Shown: in pieces, positions 13,615 through 42,747 of the stretch
Numbering within the stretch: position 1 is the stretch's first letter
How the letters are laid out: each line of letters opens with the position of its first letter
Virus record (IMG/VR): IMGVR_UViG_3300021256_000096
Reading direction: 5' to 3' (one strand)
DNA length: 64,000 bases
Source of the DNA: an uncultured virus (IMG/VR IMGVR_UViG_3300021256_000096)
Taxonomy: Duplodnaviria > Heunggongvirae > Uroviricota > Caudoviricetes
The notes under the pieces: generated by a model
What the model saw: only the letters and a program-made list of their open reading frames with translations
What the model was told of the DNA's origin: nothing
Database searches by the model: none
Program-made: the position numbers and the translations under genes

Positions 13615-14124
13615 ATGGATAAGCAGAGATTATACGAGAATATAATGCGTGACTTGAGGGACGTCTTCTCTTCTTTGATGAATGAAGATGTCCTGGACGA
13701 TTTGGACAGGATTGATAGCGGTAAGACGTCCGTAGATAAGATTCTCGATATGAGTCCTATTGTCATGCGTCAGGGCGGGAAGTACATAGAGATGCAGTTG
13801 TCTAATGATGAGAACAAGAATGAGATTATGAGGCTTGTTGCTGACCGTTTTCGCTATGGAACGTCTAATAACGATGTGATTAACATCGATGATTTCTTGT
13901 TTGAAGATAGAGAGGGTGAGTACAAGATGTGGTTGTTCGCAGAAAACTTGATGTCTAAACGTTGGTGTAAGGGGCGTATATTTGCTCACGCAGACTTTAG
14001 GACCCACAAACACGTCCGGTGGATTGTATTCGAGAAAGATGAGAGTGACGGAAAGTGGTATGCTACTTGCGGAGAAGATCTTCACGACAGAAGTTATCGG
14101 AGAATCCTAAGCATAAAACAGTGA
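13615..14124 (+). CDS. late protein with LYENIM leader
   Basis: MDKQRLYENIMRDLRDVFSSLMNE; GATAAATA at 13600. Confidence 0.8.
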   Translation: MDKQRLYENIMRDLRDVFSSLMNEDVLDDLDRIDSGKTSVDKILDMSPIVMRQGGKYIEMQLSNDENKNEIMRLVADRFRYGTSNNDVINIDDFLFEDREGEYKMWLFAENLMSKRWCKGRIFAHADFRTHKHVRWIVFEKDESDGKWYATCGEDLHDRSYRRILSIKQ

Positions 14125-16979: not shown

Positions 16980-17030
16980 ATATTTGAATATCGGGGGGAT
17001 ATTTAAATATCATATCCATATTTAGATATC
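16980..17030. repeat. ATATTTAAATAT-type palindrome array (3 units, 19-bp period)
   Basis: Units start at 16980, 16999, 17018. Confidence 0.7.
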
Positions 17031-22490: not shown

Positions 22491-23941
22491 TATCTGTATG
22501 TGGATATCTGGAATATTGCATTATTTCAGATATTCTATTGCATTTAAATAATCATATATGATATATTAGGATTATTTTTATATGATAAACTATCAGATAT
22601 GATAATTTAACTTTGGACGTCTAACCGATGACTGATGAGATGATGCTAATGTATATTATGGTATACATTTCTCTGAGGTTTTGTGTACTATATGATACAT
22701 TATGAGTAAGGAGTGTAGATATAAGGAGGACGTTGAACCTGGGATGAGCGGCGTATGCTTTGTTGTATTACTTAGAGACGATACTGAGGATGGGGTAGAC
22801 GTCCTGGTCTGCTGCTACGAAGCGAGAATGACTCTTTAATATCTTCTGTCTGAACACAAAAAAATTTATTATCCGACGTTATAACATTACTCCGGATGAT
22901 TGGATGTTTACGGATAAGATTTGTTCAGACGTCCCACCGGACGTTCAAAACACTTGTTGTTAGGTTTCTCTATTATTGATGATTTAAATGTTTGCTCTTA
23001 ATAATCTGAATTGTTGTTTACTCGTCTGATGTCTTAGTATACTCTGAACTAATCTTGAATTCTCTAATCTATATTATACGTCCGTAAATAATCTGAGATG
23101 CTCTTATATATGCTCGTATATTTCAGATGCTATGAATGATTTGTTCTCTATAAAGGATGAATTTTAATGATCTTGAACTTTTATCTTTTATAGACAATAA
23201 ACTTAAACTACTCTCTTATATGACTCGTGATACTTGTGATAGTCGTGATATGCTCTGTACTCTACTCTATATGTCCTTGAATAATCTTATGATGGTTCTA
23301 AATAACTCTTAATCTCTTGAAATGTCTCTAATACTTCTAATACTATAAATGATTCTCTTTATTTATCCAGGACGTCTGAAGCAGGAACTCAGATTCTCTT
23401 TACTACTTGACTTACTTGCCGGACGCAGCATATTCGTGAGTCTCAACTCATCTTCAGTTATCCAGACGCAGACGTCCACGGATGATATATCATACTTTCG
23501 AGAACAGATACATCTGCTGAAGAAATAATATATACTGAACAGACAGATACAAACAGTATTATACCCTACTTGCCAGTAATAGTTTCACAGACAGACATAT
23601 AGACAGTTTTATACGGACATCCAATCTAATTTCATAACGAAACCAGATTATTTGTTCCCCCTTCAGATGATCATACCGGCCTGGAGGATACATATGCGCC
23701 AGGACAAACGTCCAGACATTTATTCGGAAATAAAATTTAGATTCGTAACGAAACCTATTTTTCTGTTTCCATATAAATCGATTTTTATTGCCAGCTGGCA
23801 GCATTTTTTAAGCTTTTCGCTCCCAGATTGCAGATCCTTCAGTATGATCCGACGTCCTGGATAGTAATTTCATAACAGGATTCGTAACGAATCTCAATTT
23901 TGATAAATATCTAAACGACTTTTCGAATATTTCCGCTTAAA

Positions 23942-28742: not shown

Positions 28743-29435
28743 TCAAAGCAGCAGCAATAGCCCGCCTATGATTGCTATCGCAAAGGAGAACAGTGTTCCC
28801 AGGAGGACATATTCTGTTAGACGGAAGTCAGATGAGTTCTTGATGTCTGAAAATCTGAAGACAGACTTCGCTGTTATCAAGAATCCTACTGCCGAGAAGT
28901 TGTGTGTCGTTATAAAAGTCACGATTAGTATCCTTTCAATGTATCCGATCCACTTGCCTGCGTTCGGAAGACCCGTGTAATCTGGAACGTTTGCACTCCA
29001 CTGTCTGAATATCCTTTCAATAAGCAAGGACGTAGGCATAGTCATCGCTGAGTAGACTATAAGATACTTCCAGACAGATGCTGAAGCCAAGAAAGATTCT
29101 ACAGATGACCATAGTTGAGTCACATCTCCGGTGATTAACGTCCATATTGCTTCCAGGACGCATAAGTGAGCAGCCTGGTCTGCGAGAAACCACTTCGCAT
29201 TGTCAGACGTCCAATGCGACTTCACATAATCAATAAGGAAATGAGTGACAAATACTGCCGGAACAATCCACCATAGACTAAACATTCCCAATATAATGTA
29301 CACTGACAGTGCGTTGATGAGAGCGTGAACGCTGAGTGCGATGAGAGAACGCTATTTTGATTTCGCAATGAAATCACTTTGTAAGAAGAAGTCGCCGATG
29401 ATGTGGCCGGCAATCAATTTGAGCATTGTTATCAT
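28743..29435 (-). CDS. DUF3307 family multi-pass membrane protein
   Basis: GHIIGDFFLQ, THFLID, ADQAAH, GKWIGYIER motifs; needs TAG 29352 read-through; ATGA overlap with the SatD stop. Confidence 0.8.
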
Positions 29436-30079
29436 ATCTTTTGTTCGTCAGTGTACATTTTAATCCGGTCTTCTGACCATTCTATAATCTTCTGCATCTC
29501 CGAGTAATTGGATCCACTCAATGATGTAGACAGTGTCGTCGTAAGAAACTTGAACTTCTTACATATATCTTCTCTGGATTCGCCGAGCATCATAGCCAAC
29601 GCAATCTTCGCACGCCTTAACGTCCACTGAGAGATGATGACAGATAATGCTGTCGTCGAGATGAACATATCTGAATTCAACTGTTCATCTCCTGACTTGA
29701 AGACGAGTCTCTCCTTAATCTTGATTTTATCCAGGCCGTGTCCTGAGAATATAAATGCCTGACCGTTGGACAATGTGACTTTACTGTCCAGTTTATCTGC
29801 TGTTCCAAGTCCGATGGAGATACGAACGTCGTAACGTTGAGTGGGAGTAGGGCTGGATGAGATGACAAATGCTCGGATTAATATCGCCAGCTTGATTACG
29901 AGTTCAGGTTGAAAGAGTACGATCTGGAACGCATCTCCCCTGTAAATCTCGAATTTAATGTCCGGATAATTTTTCTTCTGTTGGTTCAGGAATTTATTGA
30001 GAGACTTCATCAGACTTACGCCTGCGTCTGGAATCTTGGATGAGTTCACTATATCTCCGGTTAATACAGATACTATCAT
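29432..30079 (-). CDS. SatD family protein
   Basis: MIVSVLTGDIVNS..YRGDAFQ..RISIGLG..GQAF; GATAAATA at 30112-30119 (-). Confidence 0.8.
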   Translation of the reverse strand: MIVSVLTGDIVNSSKIPDAGVSLMKSLNKFLNQQKKNYPDIKFEIYRGDAFQIVLFQPELVIKLAILIRAFVISSSPTPTQRYDVRISIGLGTADKLDSKVTLSNGQAFIFSGHGLDKIKIKERLVFKSGDEQLNSDMFISTTALSVIISQWTLRRAKIALAMMLGESREDICKKFKFLTTTLSTSLSGSNYSEMQKIIEWSEDRIKMYTDEQKI

Positions 30080-30280
30080 ATATATTATGTCACACGAGTG
30101 AGTATTTTCTCTATTTATCTGTGCTGAAGTCAAGATTCGACGCTGAAGTCGAATTTCAAGAATTCGATTCTGAAGTAGAATTCGTCATCAATTAGGATGA
30201 TTTATACATCCGAATAAATTTTTTTTGAAAAAAGTTCTCCAAATTGGAAACTAAATTGAAAACACTGCGTACTATATACA

Positions 30281-30835
30281 GAGGCGGATGTCTGGGACGC
30301 CGCTTCAAGGCTCAAGTTTGATATGAGTTGCTACAGTGGTAGCGAGAGATGTTCTCTCATAGATTCCCCCCGAAAAGGAGAGTTGAAAACTCGGTCTCCG
30401 CGAAAACCAAGTAGAGAAGTTCCGGCTTGAGTAACATGTTTGGGATAGGGAAACAAATCAGACGTTTCGAAAAGACCCTTCCGTGGGGCCGACTCCTGAT
30501 AATCGATGGAGAATTACAATAAGAACGTCTTAATCCGGCCCACTATAAGCCCGCCTCATCTGGACGACCGGTGACGCAAACTACGAGACGTTCTCAAGTT
30601 CTGCTCGCTGCTCGGCTGGCTAGAAGACGAAGGCTCCGATTCGCCGGAATTCTTCACTTTAGTGCTCTCCCCTGGGTAACCGACTTGATTGTGAGGCTGT
30701 GCGTGGACGCACGCAACAAGAAGCATTGGGCAATACAAGCAACGGTTTGTTAACAAGAGCCAAATTTTACCGCGAGTTTCCACTCAAACATCATACTAGT
30801 TCCAGGAGTCCCTCAGTGATGAGGGACTTTTTTAT
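30281..30835 (+). ncRNA. large, highly structured non-coding RNA (~550 nt), family unassigned
   Basis: GC-richer island with no credible ORF, many nested helices (see findings), AT-rich promoter-like region upstream and an intrinsic terminator. Confidence 0.7.
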
Positions 30836-30838
30836 TTT
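30807..30838 (+). terminator. intrinsic terminator
   Basis: agtccctc-agtgat-gagggact-tttttatttt. Confidence 0.8.
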
Positions 30839-30950
30839 GTAAATATCCGAGCGATATTTAAATATTTGGGTTCATAATCAACCCAGATAATCAAATATAG
30901 GTCCGATATTTAAATATCCGGACGTCGATATTCAGATATCTGAGATATCG
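30835..30950. repeat. ATATTTAAATAT-type palindrome cluster
   Basis: Perfect units at 30854 and 30906; degenerate units at 30835 and 30928. Confidence 0.65.
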
Positions 30951-31112
30951 TAATACATCTAATAATGCAATATCTTTCGGATATATAACGAATCTTGATT
31001 ATGAGATATAAGAATGATATTTCAGCGTCAGATATGAATTTCTCATCGATTCTTTTTGTGGATCCAAAATAATTTCGTATCTTTGCACAGCAAATCAAAA
31101 TTCAAGAATAAT

Positions 31113-31796
31113 ATGGACGTCAACAGCGTGATGACTCATCTCATAGCACTGCTCATAGGAGCATTAGCAGGCATTGGTCTCGGCCAATGTATGTATTTAA
31201 TCCACAATCTCATCAAGAAGTATTGGCCGTATAATTGCTTGTCGTCTGAGCAAGATATGGCTATCCACGAAGCAGGTCATATTCTTGCTTGGCTGAAGTA
31301 CTGTCCATGGTGGAACAACGAGTATGCGTACGGGCAGCACGCCGAGCATATGAATTACGTCTGCATCAACCCTCGAACCAAGAATGGTCATCTCAATATG
31401 GACGGAGTCAACGTTGATTCTAACAAGGATGTTCACAAGTATCTTCTGTTAGGAGGAATCGCAAGTACGATGCTTTACGATGGTAAACGACCCACACTGC
31501 TAAACCTTCTCTTATATAAATACTTTCACGGATGCGTTTCGGATTTGAATCGTATCCGCGCAATAGGAATGTCGAACAGAGAAGCGTGTGCCTGGATTCA
31601 AGAACAGATGGCTGACATTGATGAGTACGACAGAGAATTCCTGGCCGGCGTTGCGAAGCATCTCGTCAAGTACAGTACCGAAGATGATAACGGGACGAAG
31701 ATTATCTCGAAGTCCTGGCTGAAGAACTATGCGAAGGCATATAGAGCCGGTGACGCAATAGTATAGGACGAACGTCCGTATAAAACTAAACAATGA
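31113..31796 (+). CDS. membrane-anchored zinc peptidase-like protein (M41/M50-like HEAGH)
   Basis: N-terminal TM; AIHEAGH..LLGGIA..SDL; TAG 31764 reads through to TGA 31794; early promoter tatctttgca at 31078. Confidence 0.65.
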
Positions 31797-32395
31797 CCGC
31801 CGAGTATAATTTATAGTTCAATACAACATCAAAAAACTATCATAGTTAAGATTTGGACTGTCCCACTCGTGAGAGCCGGACAGTTTTCTTTATATAGACG
31901 TCCGTAGAAAACTAAACATTCGCTGCTGAGTACAATATATAACAACCTGAAAAGTTTTTTTACTTCATCTATTACAGTCTGCCCTGCTCGTGAGAGTCGG
32001 GCAGATTTATTTTCCAGACATCTCAACTTCTTCCCCCTTCAGCAATTTTTGTTTCCTGCATTGAGAAAGCGATCGCCTGCGCTCGAAGTTTTATGATCCA
32101 GATGACTGCTTTTCTCGCTTTTATGCGGAACGATAATCAGGATTCGTAACGAAACCAATTATTATATGGATATTTCGGGCTCGAATTCTGCAACATGCTT
32201 CAGTTTTTATTGAAAGCTGGCAAGCTTTTTTTGCGATCGCACAGAGAAATTTGTCTTCATGTTGATAAATTTTCTTTCCTGGATGAACAATTAATTATTT
32301 GGTTTCGTAACGAATCCAATATATCGTCTCATTTTAACCGGACGTCTGCGCTATACTCTCTATTATCCAGGTGATAAATAAAGAAAATTAATTCT

Positions 32396-32921: not shown

Positions 32922-33392
32922 ATGAAGCGGTTAACAAAAGAACATTTCAAGGTAATGATGAAAGTCTGGTTGAGTGCTGGACATAAAACTTATTCACAGT
33001 TATTAAACGACTGCGAGATAAAGTTTTTCAACGACCTCCTTACAGAAGGTTATATAGAGATTGTCAATAGATTCTATCCAACTATTCCGTACAAAACTGG
33101 ATTCAGCAAAGTGATGGACAATTTCGTAGAGAATCTCGAAATTATGAACGCTCCGCTGAGCAGCGACGAAGAAAAGAAGAAGCCGAGCGCTGCGCTTGAC
33201 ATCAAGATAGAAGACTTGGAGTTGTCCGCTCGTGCATACAATTGTATGGAGATGAACGGCATCAAGACTCTCGGTGAGTTGATAAAGTGGAACAAGAAAG
33301 ATTTACTGGGTCTGAAAAATCTCGGACGCGGAACTCTCAATGAACTGGACCAAATCGTAGATTACTACGGATTATCGTTCGGAAGAAAATAA
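32922..33392 (+). CDS. protein with a C-terminal RNA polymerase alpha-CTD-like domain
   Basis: IEDLELSARAYNCMEMNGIKTLGELI..DLLGLKNLGRGTLNEL; early promoter tacctttgca at 32889. Confidence 0.85.
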   Translation: MKRLTKEHFKVMMKVWLSAGHKTYSQLLNDCEIKFFNDLLTEGYIEIVNRFYPTIPYKTGFSKVMDNFVENLEIMNAPLSSDEEKKKPSAALDIKIEDLELSARAYNCMEMNGIKTLGELIKWNKKDLLGLKNLGRGTLNELDQIVDYYGLSFGRK

Positions 33393-34521: not shown

Positions 34522-35376
34522 ATGCTAATTAGAAAACTGAAGAAAACAATGGTCGGCTCACTACTGATGCTAGTGTCGACTGCCGCATCCGCGCAGGATT
34601 TGCTGGCGAACAATGCTCCCGTTGACAGGAAGATGAAAAACGTGGATTCTCTCCTTATACACAAGTTCATTTATAATACAGACGTCAACACTTTGAACTT
34701 CGCAGAAGAACTGTACGACGAATGGAGCAACGATTTAACACATTACAGGAACAGCACTTTGCTGCCTGATGAATTCAAGATTGACTTGAGAAACTTCACG
34801 ATGCCCACAGACAGTAAGCAGGTGACTTCTGTCTACGGACAAAGATGGGGCCGCCTCCACGCCGGCCTGGACATTAAAGTCTATATTGGCGACACGATAC
34901 GTGCCGCTTTCGACGGAAAAGTCCGCATAGTGAAGTATGATGCCAGGGGCTATGGCAAGTTTGTAGTCATCAGACATCCGAATGGATTGGAGACGTACTA
35001 TGGACATTTGTCCAAGCAACTGGTCAAAGAGAACCAGGACGTGAAGTCCGGAGAACCAATCGGTCTGGGAGGAAACACGGGTCGTAGCACGGGTTCTCAT
35101 CTGCACTTCGAGACCAGACTCTGTGGAATATCAATTAATCCCGCAGAACTGTTTGACTTCAAGAATCAGGACGTTACTGACGACTACTACGTCTTCACCA
35201 AGAAAACTCATCCTCAGAAGACAACTACGGGGATGTACGTCCACAAAGTCAGAAAGGGCGAATCACTGTCGAGCATCGCTCGTAAACACGGGACGACAGT
35301 TGCTGCCCTATGTCAGTTGAACCACGTCAGCAGGAACACACGTATAGTGTCTGGACAAATCTTGAAGTACAAGTAA
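34522..35376 (+). CDS. M23 family peptidoglycan peptidase with C-terminal LysM and signal peptide
   Basis: HAGLD, YGHL, GNTGRSTGSHLHFE; LysM HKVRKGESLSSIARKHG; GATAAATA at 34446. Confidence 0.9.
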   Translation: MLIRKLKKTMVGSLLMLVSTAASAQDLLANNAPVDRKMKNVDSLLIHKFIYNTDVNTLNFAEELYDEWSNDLTHYRNSTLLPDEFKIDLRNFTMPTDSKQVTSVYGQRWGRLHAGLDIKVYIGDTIRAAFDGKVRIVKYDARGYGKFVVIRHPNGLETYYGHLSKQLVKENQDVKSGEPIGLGGNTGRSTGSHLHFETRLCGISINPAELFDFKNQDVTDDYYVFTKKTHPQKTTTGMYVHKVRKGESLSSIARKHGTTVAALCQLNHVSRNTRIVSGQILKYK

Positions 35377-35462: not shown

Positions 35463-36923
35463 TCACTTATTTAACAGCCTCTTTCTGGCTTTGAGTTCGC
35501 TGATGCGAACTCTGACCGGGGGAATCACCGCTCCCATACACTCTCTCGATATTTCTGCATCGATTGAGTTTACTTTTAGATACTTCCTGAGAATGTTGTA
35601 CGCTCCGTTCACGTCAGCGTTGATGAGAGTTCCGTCTGAAGCGCAGTAAAGCCCGCGCTTGATTCTCTTTCCGGAGAATCTGTACACTGTATCATCTCCC
35701 TTTACATAAGTGGGTATTTCATCTCTGTCAAGGAATGATGCCTTTGACGTGTAACTCTCTTCCTGTCTGACTACAGTGATGCCGTATGCGGCAGCCTTGT
35801 ATTCGAGTTTCTCTATGAGAGAAGTATAAGGAATGAATGCAAAGTTCTGTTTTGTGACTTTGTGGAAAGGCAGATTGTCTTTCCATCTGTCATTATGACC
35901 GATGATGATTGTATTTGCACGGATTATCCGTGCAATCTCGATGAGTTTCGCACTTATGAGATGCATGATGTCATCGAGAATATTCTTGCGGTCGGCCCAC
36001 ATCTTCCTTGTGTACTCGTCAGATGCGAAAGATGAGTCTTTCGCTTTCATCTTCTCAGTGTAGGTTGAGATTTTGTAATTGTAATACCGGTTGATTGACT
36101 TGATTTCTCTGCCGTCTATGATGAAGGATTTGAAGGATTCAAGATTCGAGACAACCGTACATAGGTTGTCCAGTCCTGAATCTATCGCAAGATAAATTCC
36201 ATTATCTTGCTTTGCTGGTATTCTCTTCCTGTTCTCATACACGACATTGACCAGGCACTGACCGGGGGAATACGATACGTTCACCGAACGTATGAGTTCC
36301 GGGTCTACCAGAGTCTTGAAATGTATGCCAGTCTTGGGTATGTCAATCATTCTCTCAGCAAGCGACTTCTTGCTGAGCGTCGCTTTGAAATATTTCGCTA
36401 CATATGTAGCGTTGTTATCGGTTTTTGAATATTTGGGTATCCCGACATATCCGTCATATTCGCCTATTGCTTTCTTGCGTTTGAGTTCTTTGTATATAGT
36501 CCACTCTGTAATCACAGAGCGTAAGACTGCCTGCGCTACATTCGCAGGCATTATCCTGAAGTCTGGCTGTTCGATGCTTTTGAGATATTTTTCAATTTTC
36601 TGATATGACAGATACTTTCCTCTCACATCATCGAACATATCACAAGTGTAGTTCTTTCCAGTGACGTTGAAGAAGTGTTGTCTTGTGATGAAGACAACTA
36701 CGTTTCTGAGTTTTGCTGCCTGTAGAAGAATAGGATACAATTCGCTGAACTCGCTGCTTCCCTCACGGAAGCAGTGTTTCTCAACGAGATAGTTTTCATC
36801 GTCGTCTTCAGTATTGCTGACAAAGTTCTCACACGACAAGTCTTTGTCGTGCTCTTTCAGCAATTTGACGACTTCCTGACCGTCAATCACATTGTTCTTA
36901 TAATATGACAGCAAATTTATCAT
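35463..36923 (-). CDS. tnpB: TnpB (IS200/IS605 family RNA-guided nuclease), no adjacent TnpA
   Basis: YLAIDSGLDN (RuvC-I), IIIGHN, QEESYTSKAS, INADVNGAYNILRK (RuvC-III). Confidence 0.9.
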   Translation of the reverse strand: MINLLSYYKNNVIDGQEVVKLLKEHDKDLSCENFVSNTEDDDENYLVEKHCFREGSSEFSELYPILLQAAKLRNVVVFITRQHFFNVTGKNYTCDMFDDVRGKYLSYQKIEKYLKSIEQPDFRIMPANVAQAVLRSVITEWTIYKELKRKKAIGEYDGYVGIPKYSKTDNNATYVAKYFKATLSKKSLAERMIDIPKTGIHFKTLVDPELIRSVNVSYSPGQCLVNVVYENRKRIPAKQDNGIYLAIDSGLDNLCTVVSNLESFKSFIIDGREIKSINRYYNYKISTYTEKMKAKDSSFASDEYTRKMWADRKNILDDIMHLISAKLIEIARIIRANTIIIGHNDRWKDNLPFHKVTKQNFAFIPYTSLIEKLEYKAAAYGITVVRQEESYTSKASFLDRDEIPTYVKGDDTVYRFSGKRIKRGLYCASDGTLINADVNGAYNILRKYLKVNSIDAEISRECMGAVIPPVRVRISELKARKRLLNK

Positions 36924-41747: not shown

Positions 41748-42299
41748 TTAATCAAAAACTTCAGCGTCCTTCAGATACGGATGATGCATATCCTTCTCAC
41801 TGAACTTCGCATTCGCTATTGTTCTCGCCGGCCATTGAATGTTGATAGTTGGGTCGTCCCAACGAATACCGGCATCTGCCTGCGGCGCATAAACATTGTC
41901 CACTTTATAGCAGAAGACTGCCGTTTCACTCAACACCAAGAACCCGTGTGCGAACCCCCGTGGTATGAACAGTTGCCTATGGTTGTACTCAGACAACTCA
42001 ACTGCTACGTACTTTCCGAATGTCGGGCTGGATTTCCGGATGTCCACTGCGACGTCAAGCACACTGCCTTGGACGACTCGTACGAGTTTCGCCTGCGCAG
42101 CATCACCCTTCTGATAGTGAAGTCCGCGCAGAACGCCGTATGACGACTTGGATTGATTCTCCTGGACGAAGTGGACGTCTCCCACACATCCGCGGAATTC
42201 TTCTTCCTTGAATGACTCGAAGAAATATCCGCGGTCGTCTTTGAAGACATTCGGCGTAATAGTATACACGCCGTCGATAGATGTCTTTTCGTACTTCAT
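41748..42299 (-). CDS. rfbC: dTDP-4-dehydrorhamnose 3,5-epimerase
   Basis: DDRGYFFE, VLRGLHYQ, QAKLVRV, GFAHGF, YKVDN. Confidence 0.95.
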   Translation of the reverse strand: MKYEKTSIDGVYTITPNVFKDDRGYFFESFKEEEFRGCVGDVHFVQENQSKSSYGVLRGLHYQKGDAAQAKLVRVVQGSVLDVAVDIRKSSPTFGKYVAVELSEYNHRQLFIPRGFAHGFLVLSETAVFCYKVDNVYAPQADAGIRWDDPTINIQWPARTIANAKFSEKDMHHPYLKDAEVFD

Positions 42300-42312
42300 A
42301 ATGAATCCTGAT

Positions 42313-42747
42313 TTATTTTACACCCGTGTGACCGTAGCCGCATTCACCACGTTCAGTCTCGTCGAGTTCCTCGACAACGTCCCACTCAGCCCTTTCAAAC
42401 TTAGAGATAATCATCTGAGCGATACGCTCGCCATCATTGACGATGAAGTTCTCTTGACCGTGATTTATAAGGACGACTCCAATCTGCCCTGAATAATCTG
42501 GATCTATCGTGCCTGGTGTATTACATACACTTATTCCGTGTTTCAAAGCAAGCCCGCTACGAGGACGTACTTGTGCTTCGTATCCATCTGGTAAACCAAT
42601 ATAGATTCCAGTTGGAATCAACTTACGCTCACCAGGAGCCAATGTAATTGGAGCGTCAATGTTAGCTCTTAAATCTACGCCAGCAGCGCCTGCTGTAGCA
42701 TACTCAGGCAGCGGATGCTTCGACTTGTTTACAATCTTGATTTTCAT
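42313..42747 (-). CDS. dut: trimeric dUTPase
   Basis: [34 protein letters not shown]. Confidence 0.95.

Follow-up and report, generated by a model that had tools for sequence, protein, structure and literature searches.

What is encoded in the GC-rich, gene-free gap at positions 30281-30838 of this 64,000-nucleotide stretch of viral DNA, here called the window? A sequence-only reading had proposed a large, ornate, structured non-coding RNA of unassigned family, either ROOL/GOLLD-like or new. Few large RNAs are found in bacteria and phages, and most of those with a known function are catalysts or belong to the core machinery. The analysis described below brings in a further family, uncatalogued and about 525 nt long, for which four studies give independent evidence of expression and whose ends are defined.

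The RNA gene and its boundaries

The locus is a free-standing non-coding RNA gene, 30281-30838 on the plus strand, and this part of the explanation is held with very high confidence. As had been proposed, the gene interrupts no other and sits in the gap between a DUF3307 gene pair and a 217-aa gene. The GC-richer island reported earlier was recovered (0.50-0.51 over 30350-30799 versus 0.32-0.38 immediately outside), with the caveat that some nearby genes also reach 0.45-0.49.

A bipartite promoter-like motif, AAACT-N17-TACTAT, is located at 30248-30275 on the plus strand, and the upstream tactatataca that had been singled out before is its -10 half. The motif belongs to a class that is enriched in the 71.7-kb contig from which the window comes, where it was counted seven times with a spacer of 17 and no more than once with any of 10 other spacers; in 30 shuffles the mean was 0.2 and the maximum 2. 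The promoter region, 30230-30280, shows 2-4% divergence among relatives. Because of the spacing of this motif, transcription is predicted to start at about 30281-30282. Members of the broader AAACT-N17-TAYWAT class occur in the contig at 30248, 31783, 31909 and 64567 on the plus strand and at 23585, 18291 and 391 on the minus strand, and a complete 673-kb relative, G002, shows the class more weakly (9 at spacer 17, 2-7 at other spacers). A similar motif with a spacer of 16 is found upstream of the tmRNA genes in two of the three Lak-like records examined.

At the other end, the clean terminator of the earlier reading is an intrinsic terminator with a 12-pair stem and a U-run at 30804-30838 on the plus strand (z = -4.08), and in the relative L037 it carries two adjacent double-sided, compensatory changes. 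The body of the RNA, about 525 nt at 30281-30806 on the plus strand, is defined by RNA contigs, the lack of a conserved ORF and the lack of an Rfam match; the primary transcript would extend through the terminator to about 30835. The plus strand was assigned from the promoter, the terminator and G-U-type changes, not from stranded reads. Folding energies differ by a modest gap only, -149.1 kcal/mol for the plus strand versus -139.2 kcal/mol for the minus strand.

Presence in gut RNA libraries

Is the gene transcribed? Sequencing runs were searched with the full 2.4 kb of 29400-31800, so that the flanks were part of the query along with the RNA. The search listed 20 runs, six of which were RNA runs from four studies with word shares of 0.11-0.16. 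RNA contigs were aligned for four of the six (X15, X17, X18 and X20), one per study. In all four metatranscriptomes the contigs pile up within 30292-30806 and leave the flanking genes all but bare. X15 gave one contig, 30386-30806, with zero differences and nothing outside the RNA, and the pieces from X18 span 30336-30771, again with nothing outside. In X17 the pieces span 30298-30783, and bin depths of 77-222 inside the RNA drop to 4 or less on the genes at either side. The X20 pieces begin at 30292 and reach bin depths of 136-855 inside and 0 on the genes; the only X20 cover outside the RNA is one promoter-like repeat bin. One X20 contig matches 30292-30360 only and then diverges, and it may come from another element. 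In four control runs, of which two are DNA by guess and two have no recorded kind, every one of the 30 bins across the 2.4 kb is covered.

Neither strand nor ends nor level can be read from assembled contigs, and the depths sum several alleles; the cover is therefore read as confined, repeated presence and not as a measured level. Read in this way, as contig depths, the RNA greatly exceeds its neighbouring genes in gut metatranscriptomes. The earlier idea of a transcribed large phage RNA is thus supported by RNA contigs that are confined to the element in four studies, and a very large gut phage lineage is transcriptionally active in animals.

Coding potential and sequence constraint

The claim that the element has no credible ORF stands, as the longest frames inside it have 41-75 aa and are frameshifted or stopped in relatives. 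Three relatives at the same locus, L036, L037 and L038, were obtained from one metagenome scan; indels shift every internal frame, and none of the three keeps an ORF. With the window allele they make a comparison set of four full alleles that are 88-98% alike. Over 30281-30651 the divergence is 0-3.9% in eight of nine region-by-allele cells, and the ninth, at 8.5%, is from L038 beside its insert. For reference, flanking intergenic DNA differs by 6-13% and nearby third codon positions by 11-26%. The most conserved block, 30531-30651 on the plus strand, changes by 0-3.3% in the allele comparison and contains a predicted long irregular hairpin at 30548-30635; for 30493-30651 no substitution was listed in the four RNA runs. 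The comparison indicates that the first 370 nt or so are under strong sequence constraint, well above that of neutral sites. The 3' part of the RNA is more variable (1.9%, 10.4% and 29.6% across the relatives).

Insertions have also occurred at the locus. L038 has a 224-nt insert inside the RNA (L038:4146-4369) with 74% likeness to a tnpB 3' end, and L036 has a full TnpB element (L036:4190-5930) in place of the upstream gene, with the RNA intact. The L038 insert and the L036 TnpB junction both come after AGAA, which suggests an IS605-type target motif without duplication. Natural alleles such as these, with a diverged arm or a 224-nt insert, mark dispensable parts of the RNA.

Predicted fold and covariation

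The description of the RNA as ornate was not borne out: single-sequence helices do not exceed chance, and double-sided changes are found only in the 3' arm and the terminator. Folding of the whole gave z = -1.38 with the terminator included, and 11 of 100 shuffles fold as well; without the terminator z = -0.24, and the sub-domains gave -1.79, -0.29 and -0.77. Because folding energy gives no signal, the case for the RNA is built on expression and comparison.

The complementary stretches listed in the sequence-only reading are all present, with caagt at exactly 30408-30412, and as helices they fared differently. The caagt/acttg helix is refuted, since it is broken in two of three homologues and its acttg strand belongs to a local covarying helix. 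For the helix 30380/30785, the outer 4 bp are broken in two of three homologues and the inner 7 bp are invariant; these inner pairs compete with 30436-54/30776-91. The helix 30418/30651 loses one pair in one of three homologues but extends to about 16 bp, 30409-26/30643-59, and is a live alternative. In this extended form (30409-30659, plus strand) it is an alternative or pseudoknot helix that is present in the MFE fold of the window allele alone, with duplex energies of -18.4 to -19.4 kcal/mol in three of four alleles and -12.4 in L037, and it competes with 30534-39/30643-48; towards the consensus fold it is either a rival or the partner in a pseudoknot. The cttgag/ctcaag and agacgtt/aacgtct helices and the small hairpins are invariant or have one-sided changes, which fits paired and unpaired states alike.

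The predicted consensus fold begins with a 5' hairpin at 30281-30306 on the plus strand. The same bases could instead pair with 30551-30557, or 30291-30298 could pair with 30799-30806 and close both ends of the RNA; all three pairings are possible in all four alleles and no variation discriminates between them. Predicted domain I (30310-30432, plus strand) has a 9-bp closing helix, 30310-18/30424-32, round a multiway junction with hairpins at 30330-43 and 30344-58 and a GAAA-loop hairpin near 30369-78. Three pairs in domain I change on one side yet stay paired, none in the counted helices is double-sided, and z = -1.79. Predicted domain II is closed by a long-range helix, 30436-30454/30776-30791 on the plus strand, which has 15 bp, a pair probability of 0.97-0.98 in the consensus ensemble, two one-sided changes that keep pairing, and energies of -12.9 to -14.2 kcal/mol in all four alleles. 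It encloses two sub-domains and the 3' arm. The sub-domain at 30460-30530 (plus strand) is predicted to form two hairpins, and its 3' linker takes the 224-nt insert in L038. For 30456-30660 z = -0.29, so the fold of the conserved block is weakly supported.

The 3' arm, 30664-30760 on the plus strand, is a set of stacked helices (30664-69/30755-60, 30678-82/30743-47, 30684-92/30730-39 and 30700-05/30710-15) whose pairs are found in the MFE fold of the window allele alone. Five of its 24 pairs change on both sides and 96.9% of cells are paired, a result reached by none of 500 shuffles, and slid controls gave 0-1. L038 folds the same arm by itself. As L038 is the only source of four of the five double changes, one of which is alignment-dependent, the arm counts as one strong divergent witness and not as many events. 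Covariation among homologues, which had been named as a check on the RNA, is thus present in the 3' arm and the terminator, and no double-sided change occurs elsewhere in the four close alleles. A model of 135 pairs, partly fitted to these alleles, has 99.1% of its cells paired, and all seven double-sided pairs are in the arm and the terminator. Among 23 allele differences from the RNA and control runs, 13 fall at unpaired positions, 9 leave their pair intact and 1 disrupts one; many of these are the same alleles as L036-L038. Both tallies lean to the consensus helices, since these helices were themselves derived from the same alleles. In these models the core has two competing predicted folds, the consensus and the nested core of the earlier reading, which the present data do not separate. 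Palindromes able to form kissing loops are not enriched (three 8-mers versus about 2 expected by simple arithmetic).

Could this be a stable but functionless transcript, or RNA signal from something else? The lack of a folding signal, the narrow distribution and the transposon remnant in one allele would suit such a transcript; against it are a constraint above that of neutral sites, the compensatory changes in the arm and the terminator, and the same confined RNA cover in four studies, and we regard it as very unlikely.

Comparison with known RNA families

The statement that the RNA belongs to no assigned family agrees with an Rfam search of the window, which gave no match at gathering thresholds. 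When three alleles were searched at E ≤ 10 there were sub-threshold matches only, almost all on the flanks and the terminator. Of the two possibilities offered in the sequence-only reading, a large RNA of no catalogued family held up and membership of ROOL or GOLLD did not. The ROOL model (RF03087, gathering 99.1 bits) had no match at E ≤ 10 in a single-family search in which no positive control matched, and the same holds for OLE (RF01071), with no match and no positive control matched. For GOLLD (RF02032) there were 0 matches at E ≤ 10 with 10 candidates scored, and the controls gave weak matches.

ROOL averages 581 nt in the available text of its description (PMC5737381). Like it, the present RNA is of similar length, of ruminant-gut origin, in a phage context, free of ORFs and apparently very abundant, and it has a linker that tolerates variation. 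It differs in having no covariance-model score and no tRNA neighbour, and while ROOL is widespread with low conservation, this RNA is narrow in range with high sequence conservation. GOLLD, too, is a large phage orphan transcribed as a unit of its own and has a multi-domain predicted fold; the present RNA differs from it in having no model score and no tRNA cluster, and here the variable part is 3'. ROOL and GOLLD are usually near tRNA genes, and neither the 64-kb window nor L036-L038 has one. A highly diverged ROOL or GOLLD that the Rfam models missed would explain the size, gut origin, phage context and apparent abundance; neither the window nor two other alleles scored at E ≤ 10, in a search where no ROOL positive control matched, and the 64-kb window has no tRNA, so that this is among the least likely of the readings.

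Two precedents come from large phages. According to the available text of PMC6784885, Lak megaphages have large, highly expressed intergenic regions, and that of PMC9241854 describes the lncRNAs lnc001 and lnc002 of phage K. As far as these texts go, the present RNA is like both in being an apparently abundant non-coding transcript of a large lytic-type phage with no assigned function. The Lak records have no sequence match within the RNA, only at the upstream promoter region, and the phage K RNAs, as given in the available text (PMC9241854), are beside tRNA genes, unlike this RNA.

The absence of tmRNA and RNase P hallmarks, noted before, was upheld: no model scores and no defining motif was found. 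Both tmRNA (RF00023) and RNase P RNA (RF00010) are, like this RNA, stable and several hundred nt long, and here too a helix closing the ends is possible. The RNase P model had no match with eight controls over the cut-off, and a P4 motif scan and the other RNase P models were negative. The tmRNA model did not match the element and did match its controls and three phage records, and ARAGORN found no tRNA or tmRNA gene in the 64-kb window nor in L036-L038. A highly diverged tmRNA, 6S RNA or other mimic of translation or transcription housekeeping RNAs would nonetheless be conceivable. Three Lak-like records carry a tmRNA and neither G002 nor this contig has one. In addition, two features are loosely like what we take to be the tmRNA pattern: GGGGCCGA at 30485, and a frame of 15 codons that opens with Ala-Asn at 30576, in which three L037 changes are silent. 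Against this, the tmRNA model and ARAGORN are negative, and local alignment to three phage tmRNAs scored below the shuffled mean, with no T-arm or acceptor end. The tag frame is not conserved: the candidate at 30576-30623 ends in SAG and a stop, two L038 changes alter it by changing two residues, and the X17 allele breaks the GGGGCC stretch. The single 6S-Bacteroidales match has E = 7 over 48 nt. Such a mimic is very improbable.

Introns and guide RNAs were considered as well. The group I model (RF00028) matched only elsewhere in the contig, below its cut-off, and a group I intron was rejected as there is no core score over the RNA and the element has its own promoter and terminator. No group II model, HYER included in the question, matched at E ≤ 10 in three alleles, and the domain V triad, in the form we assume for it, is absent from the window allele. 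A HEARO or OMEGA guide RNA was rejected too: TnpB adjoins one of four loci as a later insertion, there is no sequence link to TnpB ends, and HEARO gave no match. On the tests that were run, the element is an uncatalogued large phage RNA family and a member of no known one.

Distribution

How widely is the family distributed? No homologue was found by BLAST, profile search or two covariance models in 26 more distant phage records, mostly fragments and including the complete G002. BLAST of 21 motif-sharing records and 5 more gave matches of 14-24 nt only. The first covariance model, R1, found nothing in G002 or in five further records; its one match at 16 bits (1 of 16 records) was rejected because it lies inside a 379-aa ORF. 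The second, R2, matched only the window among 22 records, and two R2 matches of 14-16 bits in G002 were rejected, as was a weak tmRNA-model match in G002 that falls in coding DNA. The GC-rich gaps of G002 bear no likeness to the RNA by profile search. Two GTDB scans and the IMG/VR pattern scans gave 0 matches; an IMG/VR 17-mer (35 matches) and a gapped pattern (17) turned out on alignment to be chance throughout, and protein-anchored IMG/VR scans with two neighbour genes found none. No description of this RNA was found in a literature search. Two short stretches of it, in five spellings, are absent from six supplementary files of PMC10690425; files 1, 2 and 4, which were outside the search, could list the RNA.

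Possible function

What does the RNA do? The reading that we prefer, with a probability of roughly 0.4, is that of a trans-acting scaffold or decoy, by analogy with what has been proposed for ROOL and GOLLD; once the RNA gene is granted, the mechanism comes somewhat nearer to an even chance. ROOL and GOLLD form RNA-only homo-oligomeric cages according to the available text of 10.1101/2024.12.08.627333, which leaves open how general such cages are among large phage RNAs. The present RNA can be used to test whether cage formation is general in this group. In the proposed mechanism, a phage-type promoter would drive the free-standing gene, and the RNA, stably folded, would serve in trans as a scaffold or decoy within an infected bacterium, presumably a member of the Bacteroidales. 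The conserved 5' and central domains may make up a compact core in contact with a protein or with further RNA copies, with the variable 3' arm and the insert-tolerant linker on the outside. This picture is drawn from a core that hardly varies and folds weakly by itself, together with a variable arm and a linker that accepts an insert, which would fit a core held by contacts with protein or RNA copies. What speaks against a scaffold or decoy is the lack of a thermodynamic signal, a narrow family unlike the widespread ROOL, and the small number of alleles.

A role as cis-regulator is argued against by the RNA's own promoter and terminator and by its independence from the upstream genes in L036. 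There is no fixed partner gene either: L036 lacks the upstream genes, and the RNA ends in a terminator of its own. An RNA antitoxin, or a regulator or guide that base-pairs with nucleic acid of the host or the phage, would account for a core that is strongly conserved in primary sequence and shows little covariation, and for the several segments that have two possible partners, as in switching RNAs. We consider it distinctly unlikely: there is no significant complement in the 71.7-kb contig, G002, phages, plasmids or E. coli genomes, the RNA has no internal tandem repeats, no toxin or nuclease is fixed alongside, and the nearby TnpB genes are mobile insertions with unrelated ends.

Less improbable, though still unlikely, is a catalytic role, either as the RNA part of a specific ribonucleoprotein enzyme or as a new class of ribozyme, with a phage protein partner elsewhere in the unseen 90% of the genome. 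The near-invariant central block and the weak stand-alone folding fit an RNA that requires protein, a pseudoknot-like long helix is possible, and a length of about 525 nt is within the size range of known catalytic RNAs. On the other side, RNase P, group I, group II and other Rfam ribozymes do not match at E ≤ 10 and there is no exon context. Its absence from the complete related megaphage G002 further argues that the RNA is not a core enzyme of the group. In the boldest reading, which we hold to be doubtful, this would be a new large catalytic or self-assembling RNA class, unrelated to ROOL, GOLLD and OLE and made in bulk by a rumen megaphage of about 750 kb, and its switchable pseudoknotted core would remodel host translation or block host defence in a long-lived infection.

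Carrier genome and neighbouring genes

The carrier (G000) is a linear virus record, a 71.7-kb contig with the standard genetic code, in which no Gp23 capsid match was found. The contig is probably part of a Bacteroidales megaphage of about 700-750 kb from the ruminant gut, to judge from megaphage homologues, a Lak motif, sharing with G002 and Bacteroidetes-type promoters. The gene downstream of the RNA has a 92%-identical homologue on a 751,291-base contig, and another gene of the contig has a 62% homologue on one of 714,857 bases. A repeated N-terminal protein motif is common to the carrier, Lak phages and 38 IMG/VR loci. About ten genes and a palindromic DNA repeat of the carrier are also present in G002, whose complete 673-kb record includes a Gp23-type capsid gene. 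A promoter motif with what we take to be the Bacteroidetes-type consensus is found 14 times in the contig, against a shuffled mean of 5.8 and maximum of 10. Lak phages differ from the carrier in genetic code.

The downstream neighbour, a 217-aa gene at 31113-31766 on the plus strand with an HEAGH metallopeptidase-like motif, adjoins the RNA in all four loci. It has its own Bacteroidetes-type promoter motif near 31079 and almost no RNA cover. Its 23 homologues are all 82-95% identical; there are weak M41/M50B-like leads, under 0.9, and no firm name from the ESM Atlas or Pfam/NCBIfam/PHROGs. Upstream, on the minus strand, is the divergent gene pair at 28743-30079, of which one is a DUF3307 (Pfam) gene and the other, which has no library match, is presumably SatD-like. 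A TnpB/IS605 OrfB gene of 486 aa at 35463-36923 on the minus strand has no link to the RNA.

Several other features of these genomes were noted. The palindromic repeat GATATTTAAATAT, with 11 copies in the contig and 9 in G002, clusters in intergenic DNA at 16998, 22438, 30853-30940 and 46535, and the copies are possibly binding sites of a phage protein; the cluster just past the terminator folds strongly (z about -7, terminator included). G002 has only five tRNA genes and no tmRNA, unlike the three Lak-like records, and at G002:C1 about 268500-270300 and 280300-282100 (L104 and L105) it has long ORF-free stretches with direct repeats. Host-like accessory genes of the carrier and its relatives (32922-33392, 34522-35376, 41748-42747, L037:6137-6631 and L038:105-983) comprise an RNA polymerase alpha C-terminal domain, an M23/LysM peptidase, a dTDP-rhamnose epimerase and a dUTPase, with luxS and an RNase Z-like gene in the relatives. 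LYEDFFDD is common to two proteins (23942 and 24919). An ALYESIM-type N-terminal leader is common to unrelated proteins at 13615, 18481, 32396, 48545 (minus strand) and 55584; it is repeated 5-8 times in Lak genomes and may be a targeting signal.
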